This document shows positions 7,316 through 14,062 of a stretch of 64,000 nt of DNA, piece after piece (the stretch's first letter is position 1; every line of letters starts with the position of its first letter). The notes beneath the pieces are model-generated. The model had not been told where the DNA came from, ran no database searches, and saw only the letters and a program-made list of their open reading frames with translations. The stretch is from the NCBI GenBank assembly GCA_963839725.1, contig CAWIWT010000043.1, positions 1,798-65,797 of the forward strand. The letters are read 5' to 3'. The position numbers were made by a program, and so were the translations under genes. The DNA is from an uncultured Alphaproteobacteria bacterium (GTDB lineage: Bacteria > Pseudomonadota > Alphaproteobacteria > Rhizobiales > Rhizobiaceae).

Positions 7316-7600
7316 CTACCGGTCGATGCTGATGAAGCGCGAGGGGTGGACATCCATGACGTTCTCCTCGCATCCCTCGAGTTTCGGCGAGACGATGCTC
7401 TGGTAGCTGAAGAAAAGCAGCGGCATGATGCCGAGATCATCCACCAGCATCTTTTCGGCTTCCGCGAGGACCTTCATGCGCTCTTGCGGATTGCCTCCCG
7501 GCCGCCGCGCAGCGGATTGTCAGGGCGGTAGCCCAGCTCGGTCAGTATCCTCGTCGCTTCGTCCTCGCGCTCGATCTGCGGCATGGCGGCGTCGGATGCG
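7316..7600 (-). pseudogene. Internally deleted 3' remnant of a second oppA-like peptide-binding protein gene
   Basis: Encodes EREDEATRILTELGYRPDNPL joined directly to GGNPQERMKVLAEAEK...DVHPSRFISIDR*, paralogous to the C-terminus of 7847-9000. Confidence 0.75.
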
Positions 7601-7846
7601 CACCTTAGCACATGATAGCGGTCGACGAGGTATTGGTCAGTAGGCCCGTCAAAATGAGTTGGTCCCGTCGCCAACGAACGGCCACTTAGGGTCAAACCCT
7701 CCCGTTTCCCGGGCGACCGCGGACGTTGACTAAGCGCTCATAAGCCGACGTTAGGTTAGGCGGCCCGATCGGAAGCGATGCGCCAACAGCGGTCATGAGG
7801 CGACGCCCTCAAGGACGTTTAGCAAGACATCGGGCGGGGAATTTGA

Positions 7847-9000
7847 CTATCGGCTCACGCTGATGAAGCGCGAGGGGTGGACGTCCAGCGCGTTCTCTTC
7901 CCAGCCTGTGACCCGGGAGGAGACAATGTTGTGGAAGCTGAAGTAGAGCATCGGGATGAAGGCGACGTCGTCGATCATCACCTTCTCGGCCTCAGCCAGG
8001 AGCCGCATGCGCTCTTCCGGATTGTCGCCGGCCGCGGCAGCAGCATCCATCAGCCGCTCGAACTCCGCGCTGTCATAATGTGAGTAGTTGTTTCCGCTCG
8101 CGCGCCGCCCCAGGCCCAAGAACGTCTCGGGGTCCTTGTAATCGGCGATCCAGCCGCCAAGCCCAAGGTCGAAGTCACCGCCGTTTTCCATCATGCCGTA
8201 ATGCGTGCCGACGTCCGTGTTGAGAATGGAGGCCCGGACTCCGAGCTGGCGGAGCCCCTCCTGGATCGCCACGGCATTGCCCTGGTTGTTGTCCGACTCG
8301 TAGATGCGAAGCTCCAGCTTCAGCGGATTGTCGGGTCCATAGCCGAGCCCGGCGAGGATGGCCGCCGCCTCGTCCTCCCGCGCAAGCTGGTCCAGGCCCG
8401 CATAGTCGGCCTCGTAGGGCGTGTAGCCGCCGATGCCGGGCGGCACCATGCTGTAGGCAGGGAACATGCTGCCTCCCCACACTTTTTCGGCAAGGAAGTC
8501 GCGGTCGATCGCCATGGAGATGGCGCGGCGGACCGTCGGGTTGCTCCAGGGTTCCTTGTCGAGCTTGATCGCGAAGTAATAGGTGCCGAGATAGGCGCCG
8601 ACATGCACCTCGTCACCAAATCTCGCGCGGAGGTCCGCGAGCTGCTCGGTCGGCAGGTCGTCGTTGGAATCGAGTTCGCCCGCCTGGAAGCGCTTGATCG
8701 CGGTCGAGCTGTCCGTCGTGGGGTAGAAATTCACAGTATCGAGCCTCACACTGTCGGAGTCATGAAACTTCGGGTTCTTGACAATCCTGACGTGGTCGTT
8801 CGGCACCCATTCCGCGAGGATGAAGGCGCCGTTTGAGACGAGATTGCCGGGCTTCGTCCATTCCGCGCCGAATTCTTCCACATTGGCCCGATGCACGGGA
8901 TAGGCCGCCTGATGCTCCAGCATCTCGAGGAAATACGGCGTCGGCGCGTTGAGCGTGATCTCAAGTGTCTTCGGATCGATGGCGCGCGCGCCTATCTCTG
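7847..9000 (-). pseudogene. oppA: Oligopeptide ABC substrate-binding protein, 3' part (split by IS21)
   Basis: SBP family 5 sequence (IDPKTLEITLNAPTPYFLEML, NGAFIL, GWIADYKDP), resuming right at the IS21 end. Confidence 0.88.
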
Positions 9001-9518
9001 TGTGCAACGACAATTGCGGTGGTGGGTCGGCGACGATTAGGATGACCGGGGCTGGGGAGGCTCAAGCGGGGCGCTTTGGCGAGCTTTCTGGGAGGGGCAG
9101 CCTTGTCGAGGGCGGTGCGCCTTCGGTAGCTTTCGGTGTTGATCTCCAGAATGGTCGCGTGGTGGACGAGGCGATCGATGGCGGCCACGGTCACGGCTGG
9201 ATCGGGGAAGACCTTGTCCCACTCGCTGAACGGCTGATTGCAGGTGATGATGAGGCTCTTGCGCTCGTATCGCTCGGCGATGAGTTCGAAGAGCACGGCG
9301 GTTTCTGCCTGGTCCTTGCGGACGTAGCCGAGGTCGTCGAGGATGAGACAATCGAACTTGTCGAGCTTGGCAAGGCTAGCCGGGAGGAGGAGATCGCGCC
9401 GGGCGGCCTGCAGTTTCTGGACGAGATCGGTGGTTCGAGAGAAGAGCACGCGATAGCCGTGGTCGATGAGGCCGGCGCCGATGGCGGCGGCGACATGGGT
9501 CTTGCCGGTGCCGCTCGG
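9001..9518 (-). pseudogene. istB: IstB ATPase, 3' part (starts inside Walker A)
   Basis: PSGTGKTHVAAAIG, LILDDLGYV, IITCNQPFSEW, AIDRLVHH. Confidence 0.9.
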
Positions 9519-9520
9519 AG

Positions 9521-10006
9521 CAGCGTCATACTGCCCGGCGTCCGGCGTCTGAGGCTCGGATCCTTTATCCCTTTCACCCGCGCGCCGGCGAGACGGTGGT
9601 GGTGGTCGGCTCGAAGCGCCACGCCGGCGCTGAGCATCTCATCATCCGGCAACCTGATCGGACCCTGGCGCTGCTACCGGCATGGATGACCGAGCCGGGT
9701 CGACTGGCTCAGCCCCTTGTTGGACATCCACGGTTTCCAGTCGAAAAGCTGTCTGACCTGCGCGCGCTTGTCGATGCCTTCATGGCCTCATGCGAGGGGG
9801 ATTCGCCCCCGTGCAAGGGAGCCGATGATGCGAAGAGCGCAACACAATCAGAGGGATCTATTCGACCAAGCGACACGGGTGAGGGAGCTTCCGCCCGACC
9901 TGCGGACGAAGCTGACCCCGCTGGTCCAGGTGTTGCTGACAGAGGCGGCGGCCGCTGGGCCGCGCCAGGCCAAGGCGGACGATCTCGGCGAGGAGGACGG
10001 CGATGA
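9521..10006 (+). CDS. Accessory ORF of the recombinase element, DUF5372-like
   Basis: Open from the element end (ILYPFHPRAGETVVVVG...LALLPAWMT) and overlapping the recombinase start. No canonical start codon at the 5' boundary; GTG at 9596. Confidence 0.55.
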   Translation, partial: QRHTARRPASEARILYPFHPRAGETVVVVGSKRHAGAEHLIIRQPDRTLALLPAWMTEPGRLAQPLVGHPRFPVEKLSDLRALVDAFMASCEGDSPPCKGADDAKSATQSEGSIRPSDTGEGASARPADEADPAGPGVADRGGGRWAAPGQGGRSRRGGRR

Positions 10007-10022
10007 CCAAGATCACGCCTGA
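9825..10022 (+). CDS. 65-aa ORF overlapping the recombinase start
   Basis: ATG 9825, MMRRAQHNQRDLFD...DDQDHA*; overlaps ATG 10003. Confidence 0.5.
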   Translation: MMRRAQHNQRDLFDQATRVRELPPDLRTKLTPLVQVLLTEAAAAGPRQAKADDLGEEDGDDQDHA

Positions 10023-11376
10023 ACACCTCGCCCGCGCCGCATTCGTCTATGTTCGTCAGTCAACGAATGATCAGGTTCTCAACAATCACGAGAGTCGGCG
10101 TCGCCAATATGGCTTGGTCGAGCGCGCTCGCGCCCTGGGCTGGTCGACCGTGGAGGTGATCGACGACGACCTCGGCCGCTCCGGCTCCGGCATCGCCCGC
10201 CCTGGCTTTGAGAAGCTGCTCGCCGCGATCTGCGAGGGGCGCGTCGGCGCCGTCGTCTCGACCGAGGCCTCACGGCTTGCCCGCAACGGGCGCGACTGGC
10301 ACACACTGCTCGAGTTCTGCGGCCTGGTCGGCACGCTGATCGTCGACGAGGACGGCGTCTACGATGCGCGGCACCCGAACGATCGTTTGCTGCTTGGCAT
10401 GAAGGGCACGATGAGCGAGATGGAGCTGTCGCTGTTCCGCCAGCGCTCGCTCGAAGCCCTCAAGCAGAAAGCCCGCCGCGGCGAACTCTTCCTCACGGTG
10501 GCGATCGGCTACCTGAAGACCTCGCACAATCGCATTGAGAGAGATCCGGATCGTCGCGTCCAAGAGGCAATCGCGTTGGTCTTTGCCAAGTTCGCCGAGA
10601 TGCAGACCGTTCGGCAAGTCCACCTTTGGATGCGCCAACAGCGCCTGCCGTTGCCGGCGATTGAATACGGCGCAGAGGGGCGCAAGGTGGTCTGGAAACT
10701 CCCGGTCTACAACACCCTGCATCATATGCTGACCAACCCGCTCTATGCCGGGGCCTACGCCTTCGGGCGGACCGGGAGCCGGATCATCATCGAGGCCGGC
10801 CGCAAACGGATCGTGCGCGGCTTCCGCAAGGATCGCAGCGCATGGGAGGTTTTGATCCGCGACCACCATGAGGGCTACATTGGCTGGGCGGAGTTCGAGA
10901 GGAATCAGCGCCTGATCAGCGACAACGCCAACGGCAAGAGCTTCCTGAGCCGCGGTTCAGTCCGGCGCGGTGAGGCGCTGCTGGCTGGCCTGCTGCGCTG
11001 CGGGCACTGCGGCCGCAAGCTCCACGTCGCCTATAGCGGCAAGAACGGAAGCGCGGGCCGCTATCACTGTCGTGGCGGTCATCTCAACCACGGCGCCGAT
11101 TGGTGTATCTCGTTCGGCGGGATGCGGATCGATCGAGCGGTCGGCGCTGAGGTCATCGAACGGCTGCAGCCGCTGGGCATAGAAGCCGCCATCGGTGCTA
11201 TGGAAGCGCGGCGGACCGAGACCGCCGGGAAGCTGCGCCAACTCGAGCTCGCGCTCGAGCAGGCACGCTACGAGGTCCGCCAGGCGCGTCGTCAGTACGA
11301 CGCGGTCGACCCCGACAACCGCCTTGTTGCGCCGACGACATCCTGGAACGAGCGCCTTCGCTCGGCCCGAAGATGA
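10003..11376 (+). CDS. Large serine recombinase (resolvase, recombinase and Zn-ribbon domains), C-terminally truncated
   Basis: YVRQST catalytic Ser motif, EASRLARN, NPLYAGAY, Zn ribbon CGHCG...YHC, coiled coil ending at WNERL where istB sequence resumes. Confidence 0.9.
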   Translation: MTKITPEHLARAAFVYVRQSTNDQVLNNHESRRRQYGLVERARALGWSTVEVIDDDLGRSGSGIARPGFEKLLAAICEGRVGAVVSTEASRLARNGRDWHTLLEFCGLVGTLIVDEDGVYDARHPNDRLLLGMKGTMSEMELSLFRQRSLEALKQKARRGELFLTVAIGYLKTSHNRIERDPDRRVQEAIALVFAKFAEMQTVRQVHLWMRQQRLPLPAIEYGAEGRKVVWKLPVYNTLHHMLTNPLYAGAYAFGRTGSRIIIEAGRKRIVRGFRKDRSAWEVLIRDHHEGYIGWAEFERNQRLISDNANGKSFLSRGSVRRGEALLAGLLRCGHCGRKLHVAYSGKNGSAGRYHCRGGHLNHGADWCISFGGMRIDRAVGAEVIERLQPLGIEAAIGAMEARRTETAGKLRQLELALEQARYEVRQARRQYDAVDPDNRLVAPTTSWNERLRSARR

Positions 11377-11689
11377 GGATATTGGCGCCCGGCTCGATCC
11401 AGGCATTGCCAGTGGCCAGCGCGGCGATATGGGCTTTGCGGATCGAGGGGGCGGCGGCGAAGTCGAAGGTCTCGAGCGTCTTGCCTGGCGGCAGGGCGGA
11501 TTGGGCGAGGTGTCGGGCGATGCGGCGGGTGGCCCGCTCAGCCAGTTCATGCTCGCAGAGGACGGCGAGGAAGCGAGCCGCGCCCCAGCCCTCCTTGTCG
11601 GCGCGTGCCCCGAACTCCTGCCAGAGACGTCCGATGGTCGGCATTCTGAGCTCGGTGAGCATCAGCGGCAACTTGGCGGCGTCGGTCAT
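11359..11689 (-). pseudogene. istB: IstB ATPase, 5' part
   Basis: MTDAAKLPLMLTELRMP...KTLETFDF...ANILIFGPS; ATG overlaps the istA stop (ATGA). Confidence 0.9.
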
Positions 11690-13208
11690 GGCGGGATCTG
11701 CGGATGTGGTGCGGCGGCGATAAGGCGGTCATAAGCCTCGAGGTCGGGAGCCGGGATGGTGATGCGAGGCGGCGCCGTCGGCACCGGAGCGATGGCCAGG
11801 CGGGCTGCTTCCAGATCGGGGATTTGGCTGGCATCGAGGATGGCCTGGAGGTGAGTCGGCGAGCGCATCCAGGCAGCCGTGGGTCGCCGCCAGATGCAGG
11901 AGGCCGACATAGACGCGGCAGGCCTTGCGCGGCTCGAGCTTGTGGTCGAGCGCCTCCCAGGCCCGGCGGAAGACAGCCCTGGGGAAGAGATCCTCGCGGA
12001 ACACGGAGTGACGGAAGGCCTGCGGCTTCTTGACGAGGGTGCCGATCAGGTGGCGCCAATCGACCTGACGGACGGCCTTGTCGCCGGCGCGGCGATATCG
12101 GCGCGGCAGGGTGAGGACCGGCGTGGTGCCGAGGTAGCAGACGAGCCGGTCGTCATAGATGTGGACCTTCAGCCTGGTGCCGATGAGGCGGGAGGGCACG
12201 CTGTAGAGGACGCCGCGCGCCATGATCGTGCCGAAGCGGGTGACGCCGACGGTGGCCAGGGAGAAGTCGGTGGTGCGATGCCGCGGTAGAGGCTGCAAGG
12301 CCTTGAGCTCGATGGCGACAGCTGCGGCGCGCCGCGCATTCTTGCGAGCGACGGTCTCGGCCAGGAAGGCCTGATAGGCGGCGAGGTCGGCAAAGTCGCC
12401 CGACCCGCGCAGCTCCAGGGCTTCCCTGATGGAACGCTTGAGGTGACCATGCGCGGCCTCGACGGCGCCGTTCTCATGCGCCACGCCGGCATTGTTGCGG
12501 GTCGGCTCCAGACCATAGTGGCGGCAGAAGGCGGCATAGCCCTTGGCCTCGTCATCGCGGTCGGCGAGGTTGCGATAGGCGGCCGAGAGCCGGTCGGTGC
12601 GGTGCTCGCGCGGCACGCCGCCGAGCTGCCAAAGCGCCTCCTGCAAGCCCTCGGTCAGGGCGGTGTAGCTCTCCCCGCCCTGAACGACACGGACATGCTC
12701 CCAGCCCGAGAAGGCGAGCCAGAAGTGGTAGAGCATGTGCTTGAACGGCCTGCCGGCAAGCGTCACCAAGAAGCCATCGGGATGGGTGAAGTCGGACAGC
12801 GCCTGGCGACCGGGCGGATGCTCTTGCCGGAAGATCAGCTCGCGCTCGGGACCCTCGGTCGCCCGCCAATGGGCGACGTGGCGCTGGAGAGTGCGCAGCA
12901 GCCGGTCCGGATAACGGCCGGGATGCAGCCGCTGCAGTTCTTCAAGCAGGGTCGTGGCGCGAATGCCCGGCGCCCGCTCCAGGATCGGCACGATCTCGGC
13001 GCGCCACACGTCCTGGAAGGGATCGACCCGGGTCCGGTACCTGTCGGGGGAGCCGCTGGCTCGCCAGTATGCGGCGCCCCTTCTCGATGCGCCGTGCCGT
13101 GCTCTCGCTGAAGCCGGCTCGTGCCGACGCGATCGCTTGGCTTGACCCCTCCTTGCGCTCGTCCATGAACCGCCTGACCTGGCGGTCGGTGATGTGCCCT
13201 CCCGGCAT
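11686..13208 (-). pseudogene. istA: IS21 transposase IstA, two +1 frameshifts near 13040 and 11860
   Basis: N-terminal HTH, QALSDFTH, HRTDRLSAA and ENGAVE DDE segments, across ORFs 12942-13262, 11729-13009 and 11686-11910. Confidence 0.88.
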
Positions 13209-13303
13209 CCGATCCCCCCGTGCGGGAGGAGGTCGAAATCGGGCAGCTCCCCGACCGGTCATCCTAATCGTCGTCAGGCGCTCACCTTAATCGTCGTCGC
13301 GCA

Positions 13304-13734
13304 TCGGGTTTCGCCTCCCCCGAGTTGACCGCTTCGGCATTCTTGATGACATAAAGCATCGAGGCATATTCCGCCCCGGTCTCGGGATTCTCCAGCCGCC
13401 CGAGAGCGTAGACGAAGTCCTCGGCTGTCACTGGATCGCCGTTCGACCACACGGCGTCCTCACGGAGCTTGAAGGTGTAGACCGTGCCGTCGTCGGAGAC
13501 CGTCCAGCTCTCCGCCGCACCGGGGATTAGCTCGCCGCGCGCATCGGGCATCACCAGCCCTTCGAAGAGGTCGCGCAGGATGTGAGCCTCGTTAACCGTC
13601 GATGTCTTGTGCGGATCGAGCGATTCCGGCTCCGACATGTTGCCGCGATTGTAGACCATCTCCGCGAATGCGCTGCCGGCAACGAGCAGAGTTAGTGCTA
13701 GCGCGATTGCGAGTTTCGCCGCCCTTCGTCGCAT
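13304..13734 (-). pseudogene. oppA: Oligopeptide ABC substrate-binding protein, 5' part with signal peptide
   Basis: RBS-like GGAG then MRRRAAKLAIALAL...AFA signal; EPESLDPH, LFEGLV, YTFKLREDAVWSNGDPVTAEDF; stops at the IS21 end. Confidence 0.88.
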
Positions 13735-13736
13735 GT

Positions 13737-14062
13737 TCAGCTCCTGTTCCTTGCATATACGTCCGCTTCCACCCGACGAAGAAGCGGCAGGAAGCGCGGA
13801 TGGTCGCGGATCGGGTCGAGGTCCGTGTCGCGACTGATCCAATCGAGCGTGCCGGGCTTGGCCCGCATGACCCAACGCTCGAGAAGATCGAGGGCCTTTT
13901 CCTTCTCCCCGACGAGCACGTAGTCGCACGCGACGTTATAAATCGTCAGCGCGTCGTCCGGCGCGATCGTCAACGCGCGCGTCATCCACTCCAGAGCGCG
14001 CTCCCGATCGCCAAGGCGGGCGAGAGCGCCGGCGCCGAGTGTAGCCGCGAGCGGCACATCTG
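13737..14062 (-). pseudogene. C-terminal TPR remnant of a cyclase-type protein
   Basis: ALEWMTRALTIAPDD..IYNVACDY...DTDLDPIRDHPRF; no N-terminus. Confidence 0.6.

Follow-up and report, generated by a model that had tools for sequence, protein, structure and literature searches.

The window analyzed here is a 64,000-nucleotide stretch of contig CAWIWT010000043.1 from an uncultured alphaproteobacterium of the Rhizobiaceae. Within it, a member of the insertion sequence (IS) family IS21 carries an istB gene that is broken by foreign DNA. On the minus strand, istB starts at 11689, reads ...NAWIEPGANILIFGPS, enters the foreign DNA, and resumes with ...GTGKTHVAAAIGAGL to reach a stop at 8961. The break point lies within the Walker A motif (GPS/GTGKT, with the slash marking the break) and divides the Ser codon as AG/C. 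The heptamer CGCTCGG is present on the plus strand at both edges of the insert, at 9512-9518 and 11359-11365. When one heptamer and the intervening 1840 bp were removed in silico (11689..11359 joined to 9511..8961), an 882-nt open frame was obtained, encoding a 293-aa IstB with GPSGTGKT intact (Pfam IstB_IS21, 9.5e-69). These coordinates confirm what a preliminary description of the locus had claimed, namely, that istB is interrupted in its Walker A codons. Its further claim that excision restores the frame holds as arithmetic only, because the copy is truncated and nonautonomous. The insert is very probably a 3'-truncated copy of a small (~2.6-kb), cargo-less element based on a large serine recombinase (LSR), which integrated at the Walker A motif of istB and later lost its right end. 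The features of the split gene and of the insert are the following.

11363..11689, minus strand: 5' part of istB, codons 1 to 109, ending ...NILIFGP (sequence and Pfam)
8961..9513, minus strand: 3' part of istB, from the third base of Ser110 through GTGKTHVAAA... to the stop (sequence and Pfam)
9514..9515, plus strand: left copy of the 2-bp crossover core CT (junction pattern of the family)
11361..11362, plus strand: right copy of the CT core (junction pattern of the family)
9516..11360, plus strand: remnant of the serine-recombinase element, about 1845 bp left of a ~2594-bp unit
9516..9535, plus strand: left attachment arm (P'), CGGAGCA GCGTCATACTGCC (conserved arm profile)
9518..10006, plus strand: body of the DUF5372 gene, 162 codons (Pfam DUF5372)
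9825/9828..10022, plus strand: conserved 64/65-aa open reading frame (ORF), M(M)RRAQHNQRDLF...DQDHA, with its own Shine-Dalgarno (SD) sequence, AAGGGAG
10003..11358, plus strand: LSR gene, codons 1 to 452 of about 689 (Pfam and alignment of relatives)
11329..11343, plus strand: local scar in the coiled-coil motif of the recombinase (alignment to relatives)
11351..11360, plus strand: deletion joint, AGCGCCTTCG against the CT core (degenerate half-site match)

The insert had been described as holding a DUF5372-like ORF, a 65-aa ORF, and an LSR. All three were found; however, the LSR is present only as its first two thirds (452 codons), and the DUF5372 gene lacks a start codon. The recombinase ORF of the window (10003-11376) encodes 457 aa, and its last five codons are antisense istB, with the stop at 11374-11376. 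A Resolvase domain (Pfam, 1e-26) was found at residues 13 to 161, in which the motif VYVRQSTNDQ holds the Ser20 expected of the catalytic domain. It is followed by a Recombinase domain (residues 187 to 308), a Zn_ribbon_recom domain (residues 326 to 380), and the first half of a coiled-coil region that is cut at codon 452; full-length relatives have all of these regions. A search for relatives among 5.8 billion proteins returned thousands. The best were 84 to 92% identical to the window recombinase, and nearly all of them were 689 aa long, with an extra C-terminal HTH_17 domain. Alignment with one 689-aa relative, P0002, gave 90% identity and was confined to residues 1 to 458; the HTH_17 domain, at residues 618 to 661 of P0002, is absent from the window protein.

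The same limit was found in the DNA. Homology to full-length relatives ends at 11357-11364, corresponding to codon ~452, within their recombinase gene and inside a conserved coiled-coil motif (DPDNRLVAAELExRWNERL/LAVRALEDERD, broken at the slash). Just upstream, at 11329-11343, the window has a scar encoding APTTS where the relatives have AAELE[QRH]R, and it is 6 nt shorter there. Compared with the relatives, the insert lacks about 750 bp, with the HTH_17 tail and the right end among the losses, and has kept the true left end. Where the relatives have the right (P) arm and the SD sequence and ATG that finish the DUF5372 ORF, the window junction lies inside the LSR gene. Of the gene set of an intact element, which comprises the DUF5372 gene, a 60- to 65-aa ORF, and a 689-aa LSR with a C-terminal HTH_17 domain, the window holds the first two together with 452 of ~689 LSR codons. 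By its sequence, the insert belongs to a family of istB-targeting elements by descent, not as an intact member.

No other copy of the element was found in the host genome (a 46-contig draft, 97.6% complete), and no sequence encoding the missing C-terminal ~230 aa was found anywhere in this assembly. With half of the coiled coil, the C-terminal third of the recombinase, the right arm, and the ribosome-binding site and ATG of the DUF5372 gene gone, the remnant cannot move on its own; since the host genome has no intact copy, the insert is an immobile relic. An exact-pattern scan of metagenome contigs for the scar and junction region, as would be carried by a progenitor or a twin, gave no match. 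Outside the window, the host genome has a second, distant LSR gene (G000:C21:4200-5996, locus L084), showing 39% identity to P0002 over residues 3 to 593. This reading passes over 4 in-frame TGA codons, and the gene is probably a pseudogene.

The family was examined by scanning one genome per prokaryotic species, which gave 545 loci encoding relatives of the recombinase; 80 of these were kept for analysis. The loci are mostly from Alphaproteobacteria, including Bradyrhizobium, Mesorhizobium, Microvirga, Paracoccus, Hyphomicrobium, Reyranella, and Inquilinus, and related sequence was found in 394 plasmid records, mainly rhizobial. From eight copies in one metagenome-assembled genome (MAG), the unit was defined as 2594 bp (L007:4512-7105), with 489 bp upstream and 38 bp downstream of the recombinase gene. 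When the restored IstB of the window was compared with the 80 loci by tblastn, residues ~108-111 to ~240 adjoined the left end of the element and residues 1 to ~109 adjoined the right end. Such flanking by IstB halves was seen in essentially all loci with enough flank (~60), and the Walker A motif begins at residue 108 of the restored IstB. Alignment of the flanks of homologs, the check put forward in the preliminary description, therefore placed nearly all of these insertions in the Walker A motif and not at unrelated sites.

Junctions were recovered at the base level on both sides in 58 loci. The left flank nearly always reads ..cttgccNgtNcc-N (antisense of G-x-G-K), after which come a dinucleotide, NN, and the end of the element, CGRAGCAG-CGTCAYAMTGCC. 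The canonical left junction of the family can be written as ..cttgccggtgcc g NN CGRAGCAG CGTCAT.. or, as a pattern, ..cttgccggtgcc-g-NN-CGAAGCAG. The right end reads ..GGTGRGCATTATGAAGCGGGMTCG, followed by NN and then by the antisense of the first two Walker A codons. The left junction in the window, with the canonical left end set against the third Walker A codon of IstB, has the same layout as in more than 50 relatives. When the flanks were joined over one NN, an in-frame G-x-x-G-x-G-K-[TS] was restored in about 50 of the 58 loci. The targeted IstB proteins are very different from one another (..LVGGTGTGKTHLAI, ..LFGPPGGGKSHLSA, ..AVGNSGTGKTHIAL, and ..ITGATGLGKSWIAC), and the Walker A variants in the targeted subfamilies include GGTGTGKT, GPPGGGKS, GNSGTGKT, and GATGLGKS. 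In a profile of 48 unique targets, information content is highest where coding is constrained, at the first and second bases of the codons for K, G, G, and G. Empty sites were found as well: three copies of one IS21 type (ggttcc-GCT-gttgcc) are unoccupied in the same genome as occupied copies. The comparison supports, at the level of the family, the earlier suggestion that the element uses as its attB the DNA of a conserved ATPase (Walker A) motif in the istB gene of another IS. In one diverged copy (L008:7105-7110), the right junction has an extra base (..GATCG-GG-tccacc instead of the expected GT-ccacc), and excision would not restore the istB frame.

In the literature searched, no publication was found that describes this family, and none that mentions DUF5372 or an istB-targeting serine recombinase. 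The family is apparently an undescribed variant of serine-recombinase transposons. A complete copy on plasmid pBbPL7HG1 of Bradyrhizobium betae is annotated in RefSeq only as a "hypothetical protein" and a "recombinase family protein," beside a truncated "ATP-binding protein" and istA, and its DUF5372 ORF is left uncalled. At locus L098 (NZ_CP044544.1, 144527-147442), RefSeq omits the DUF5372 ORF of the complete element, presumably for want of a start codon in the integrated state, and the split IstB is labelled "ATP-binding protein."

Serine recombinases make a 2-bp staggered cut at the dyad of the site. The ends of the element are imperfect inverted repeats, with about 14 of 19 positions matching, that end in ..TCG-NN-CGA..; NN lies on the dyad of attP, at the center of palindromic arms of ~19 bp. 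In the window, the left arm (P') is one half of the imperfect palindrome that makes attP when the ends are joined, and its partner arm, in the right end of the relatives, is GGCATTATGAAGC...TCG. Across the family, only two nucleotides are common to both junctions, as expected from the sequences if recombination is conservative at a 2-bp central dinucleotide. The crossover core, as read from these junctions, is 2 bp (CT here) and not 7 bp as first described. The heptamer, which does stand at both junctions, breaks down into CG, the core CT, and CGG, and CT corresponds, on the opposite strand, to the AG that opens the Ser codon AGC (the third Walker A codon). The outer bases of the heptamer are shared because, next to the core, attP (which in this lineage reads TCG NN CGG) is similar to the attB used here (gccg NN cggccc). 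The repeat is thus not a random microhomology but the core plus bases common to attP and attB, and a similar 6-bp repeat was found at L077, in another GPSG target. A crossover at the palindromic CG beside NN was considered and rejected, since NN and not CG sits on the attP dyad and the orientation is strongly biased: the recombinase gene is antisense to istB in 56 loci and sense in 2.

The core dinucleotide varies among copies (GT, GG, CT, GA, GC, and CA), and the same NN was found at both junctions in 40 of the 58 loci. One alphaproteobacterial MAG, G041, has at least 14 copies (loci L007-L016, L099-L108, L117-L120, and L133-L134), and two types of IS21 were distinguished as targets there. 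Type A has GG at both junctions, and none of its four copies is empty; one holds an element of a second lineage (L119). Type B has the native core CT, as read from its three empty sites. Among the insertions into type B, the usual orientation was found at L011 (CT/CT) and, at its B flank, in L016 (GG/GG), the other flank of which is of type A. The opposite orientation was found at L009, L012, and L133 (GG on the left and AG on the right) and at L134 (GG/GG). L013 and L016 have hybrid A/B flanks with GG beside the B flanks, which homologous exchange within the element body is not able to produce. We infer that the mosaic dinucleotides are the residue expected of a replicated 2-bp heteroduplex after recombination of a GG donor with a nonmatching target. 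A type B target in the reversed orientation presents AG, which matches GG at one of the two positions. These patterns suggest that the core sets polarity, as in other LSRs, and that mismatches in the core are tolerated more than in phiC31 or Bxb1.

The DUF5372 match (Pfam, 6.7e-08) covers residues 16 to 87 of the window frame. The frame is preceded by a stop at 9467 and is open from 9470, and no ATG, GTG, or TTG occurs before 9596, which is already inside the domain. The relatives have AGGTGA-N6-ATG in their right end. In 57 of the 58 loci, this ATG leads across NN into the frame of the DUF5372 body, and the N terminus formed by joining the ends is conserved as MKR(A/D)R-x-xQRHxAGCPAFEVRIxYPFHP. 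Because the SD sequence and ATG lie in the opposite (right) end, the DUF5372 gene is complete only when the ends are joined; with the right end deleted, this switch is destroyed in the window. Over about 160 codons the frame contains no stop. Of 54 unique sequences, 48 have its stop codon overlapping the start of the recombinase gene, 40 as ATGA and 8 as TGATG; in the window, its TGA overlaps the ATG of the recombinase as ATGA at 10003-10006. This arrangement suggests that translation of the DUF5372 gene is coupled to that of the recombinase. An AlphaFold2 model of DUF5372 (mean pLDDT of 81) shows an SH3/Tudor/KOW-like beta-barrel followed by a helix; no significant structural relative of the model was found, the best PDB match having an E value of 0.03.

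The small ORF, of 57 to 65 aa with an SD sequence and a Q+DLFE motif, ends 17 nt past the ATG of the recombinase and is present in most of 55 unique relatives. The 64/65-aa product gave no Pfam match. About 180 nt (9825-10006) are dual coding, with the tail of DUF5372 and the 64-aa ORF in different frames, both kept across about 50 divergent relatives. Conservation of starts, stops, and SD sequences shows that both overlapping frames are maintained, and a comparison of amino acid conservation alone was indecisive.

We propose that an intact element would excise as a circle in which the joined ends form attP around the central dinucleotide. The LSR would then recombine attP conservatively with attB, the DNA encoding the Walker A motif of IstB. 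The crossover would fall on bases 1 and 2 of the third codon in G-x-x-G-x-G-K-T, and the recombinase gene normally lies antisense to istB. In the window, such an element would have integrated into Ser110 (core CT) of istB in an IS21 copy. Later, about 750 bp would have been deleted, starting at recombinase codon ~452 and taking in the whole right end. The end of this deletion coincides exactly with the crossover point, which left the flanking istB sequence intact.

Three points weigh against this proposal. The junction dinucleotides differ in 18 of the 58 loci, which requires either mismatch-tolerant recombination or later exchange between copies, both of them hypothetical. The right junction in the window was read from the draft assembly. 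In addition, the recombinase ORF is still open over 452 codons and 90% identical to intact relatives, so that either the truncation was recent or the fragment has been maintained for some reason.

The right joint reads ..GAGCGCCTTCG-CT-cggcccgaag, with the core and the istB flank intact to the base. Few random deletions would stop precisely at the crossover point, which favors an involvement of the recombinase. Three routes may be envisaged: use of a pseudosite in the recombinase's own gene, aborted cleavage at attR with subsequent joining of the ends, or insertion of a defective minicircle assisted by an intact copy. According to the first, which concerns the origin of the deletion only and falls within the explanation proposed above, the recombinase itself would have made the truncated copy, with a pseudo half-site, AGCGCCTTCG, replacing the right end. 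This could have occurred by deletion in situ against attR or through a 1.85-kb minicircle that was formed and then integrated with the help of an intact copy. The joint ..TCG-CT-cggccc has exactly the form of a canonical attR, with no base gained or lost. Before the core, AGCGCCTTCG agrees with the inner 10 bp of the genuine right end (AGCGGGMTCG, a degenerate half-site consensus) in 9 of the 10 positions; such matches have a background frequency of about 1 per 650 nt. However, the outer 10 to 14 bp of the arm (GGCATTATGA) are without a match. At the position of the joint, relatives continue as ...CGCCT(T/G)CT(C/T)GCC; the closest have CTT/CTG-CTC, and the final CG may stem from the true right end via a 2- to 4-nt microhomology (TC or TCGC). 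An origin at a pseudo half-site is possible, but on balance we consider it doubtful.

Two simple causes of the deletion, a single clean microhomology and a perfect pseudosite, were rejected as neither fits the sequences of the relatives unambiguously. No closer relative showing the ancestral sequence at the joint was found by protein search or by the scan of metagenome contigs. If the ends of the truncated insert are hypothetically joined (10003-11358 to 9519-10006), the recombinase frame continues in frame into that of DUF5372. This continuation is probably a coincidence, with a prior of one in three, although it is as expected of a defective minicircle.

The right junction might also be an artifact, with a full-length element collapsed in the assembly. 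The genome is indeed a draft of 46 contigs, but the missing 230 aa are encoded nowhere in it, a collapse needs a long shared repeat whereas only 7 bp are shared, and the nearby 6-nt scar also points to a decaying copy; we regard such an artifact as very unlikely. It is highly improbable that the 1.85-kb insert is itself a complete minimal element with a 7-bp core, able to leave and reenter istB. This idea, close to the minimal recombinase-based element of the preliminary description, draws on the 7-bp direct repeat that flanks the insert, on the restoration of the frame upon removal, and on the presence of catalytic, recombinase, and Zn-ribbon domains in the recombinase ORF. It does not agree with the 689-aa proteins and 2594-bp unit of the relatives, with homology that stops at codon 452 in the middle of a coiled-coil motif, with the absence of the right attP arm and of the SD sequence and ATG for DUF5372, or with a family-wide duplication of just 2 bp; the copy in the window is defective. 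Entry of a fragment into istB by illegitimate or microhomology recombination, its position in Walker A being coincidental, is scarcely credible: microhomology joining also leaves short direct repeats at both junctions, but the left junction is base for base canonical for the family, more than 50 independent relatives lie at the same codon in diverse IstB genes, and empty sites are known.

The integrated and later truncated LSR element remains our explanation of the insert. For the family as a whole, we tentatively suggest, short of regarding it as probable, that these are generalist "motif-homing" serine-integrase elements that read the P-loop DNA of IstB, with mismatched cores tolerated and polarity relaxing. 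DUF5372, complete only in the circle and translationally coupled to the recombinase, would sense the state of the element, and the copy in the window would record the LSR acting on a pseudo half-site in its own gene.

The host of the insert is itself nested in another gene. Its two main features in the window are the following.

9001..13303, minus strand: host IS21-family element, 4303 bp including the insert and about 2.46 kb without it
11729..13262, minus strand: istA, apparently frameshifted (ORF list and Pfam)

As in IS21 elements, an rve-type istA followed by istB, encoding the AAA+ helper, lies between terminal inverted repeats; these are 49 nt each (9001-9049 and 13255-13303) and 76% complementary. 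The Pfam matches are rve and Mu-transpos_C_2, in the 426-aa part of IstA, and IstB_IS21. istA is in two frames, an N-terminal 106-aa ORF at 12942-13262 and the 426-aa rve ORF at 11729-13009, with an overlap of 68 nt (12942-13009). As istA is apparently frameshifted, the host IS21 is probably dead independently of the insertion in istB. The IS21 element interrupts a family-5 solute-binding-protein gene, with SBP_bac_5 Pfam matches in both flanking ORFs (7847-9013 and 13282-13929). The order of nesting is therefore the binding-protein gene, then IS21, then the recombinase element. IS21 elements usually generate target duplications of 4 to 8 bp. We looked for one at 8980-9000 and 13304-13325, and no direct repeat was found (..ctatctctg/TGTGCAACG and GTCGCGCA/tcgggtttcg). 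The two binding-protein fragments share about 8 positions of the Pfam model. Short ORFs at 7316-7695 (minus strand) resemble the C terminus of the adjacent solute-binding-protein gene (..AEAEKMLVDDLGIMPLLFFSYQSIVSPKLEGCEENVMDVHPSRFISIDR), suggesting duplication of part of a gene. No second copy of this IS21 was found in the host assembly, and none of 40 related genomes searched has this IS21 with the insert; the latter search yielded an uninterrupted but distant related istB in a genome of the same order.

Several known systems resemble the istB-targeting element in part. In the clostridial elements Tn4451/Tn4453 (TnpX) and Tn5397 (TndX), an LSR is the sole transposase, acting through a circle and a conservative insertion at a 2-bp core without target duplication, and in Tn4451 the joining of the ends creates an expression signal. 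Elements of this type are 6 to 20 kb long, carry catP, tetM, or mob genes as cargo, and use loose, GA-centered targets. The mode of action appears alike, to judge from sequence, with an LSR serving as transposase via a circle. In contrast, the istB-targeting element has no cargo, targets a protein motif in another mobile element, and has a DUF5372 gene and an HTH_17 tail. The match of the recombinase to the TnpX N-terminal domain was weak (E=9e-4), which does not place it in the TnpX group.

With the large serine integrases of phages and of integrative and conjugative elements (ICEs), such as phiC31, Bxb1, A118, and SPbeta SprA/YokA, the recombinase has in common the Resolvase, Recombinase, and Zn-ribbon domains with a coiled coil, which is whole in the full-length relatives and cut in the window; SprA/YokA was its best match among solved structures (E=4.5e-6). 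A palindrome-like attP is also shared, as would be attP x attB recombination at a central dinucleotide and a gene insertion that is in principle reversible. However, the istB-targeting element is only 2.6 kb long, without phage or ICE cargo, and its recombinase has an extra C-terminal region of ~230 aa with HTH_17. Its attB is multicopy and variable in sequence (the IstB Walker A motif) and not one chromosomal locus, and the core varies between copies.

Signals that arise at a circle junction are known from the junction promoters of IS911, IS30, and IS21 tandems, and in SSV1 and Mx8 attP lies inside the integrase gene. In these systems, as here, integration parts a gene from itself or from its signals, so that the state of the element sets expression; here, it is a separate accessory gene, encoding DUF5372, that loses its SD sequence and ATG, in a serine-recombinase element. 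The TnpA proteins of the IS607 family are small serine recombinases in which the order of domains is inverted, the DNA-binding domain coming first, and target specificity is minimal (PMC4058570). The istB-targeting element likewise has the size of an IS and a serine recombinase that would act via a circle, but its recombinase is a canonical LSR with a highly specific target. From all of the systems compared, the element differs in its size, its lack of cargo, its motif-defined, multicopy target in a mobile element, and its split accessory gene.

The survey gave strong comparative evidence for the target rule, and the decay of such elements is documented by the copy in the window. In genome annotation, these units are now labelled only as a "recombinase family protein" and a "hypothetical protein" beside a broken "ATP-binding protein." A natural set of LSRs that accept many attB variants and several core dinucleotides would be relevant to how these enzymes read DNA, to polarity, and to integration tools. 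If the family works as proposed, it represents a serine-integrase transposon whose landing pad is set by protein-coding constraint. The target could then hardly mutate away without killing the function of IstB, and the element would spread wherever IS21-type elements do. This would be a clean case of hyperparasitism between mobile elements, in which every insertion inactivates the transposition of IS21.

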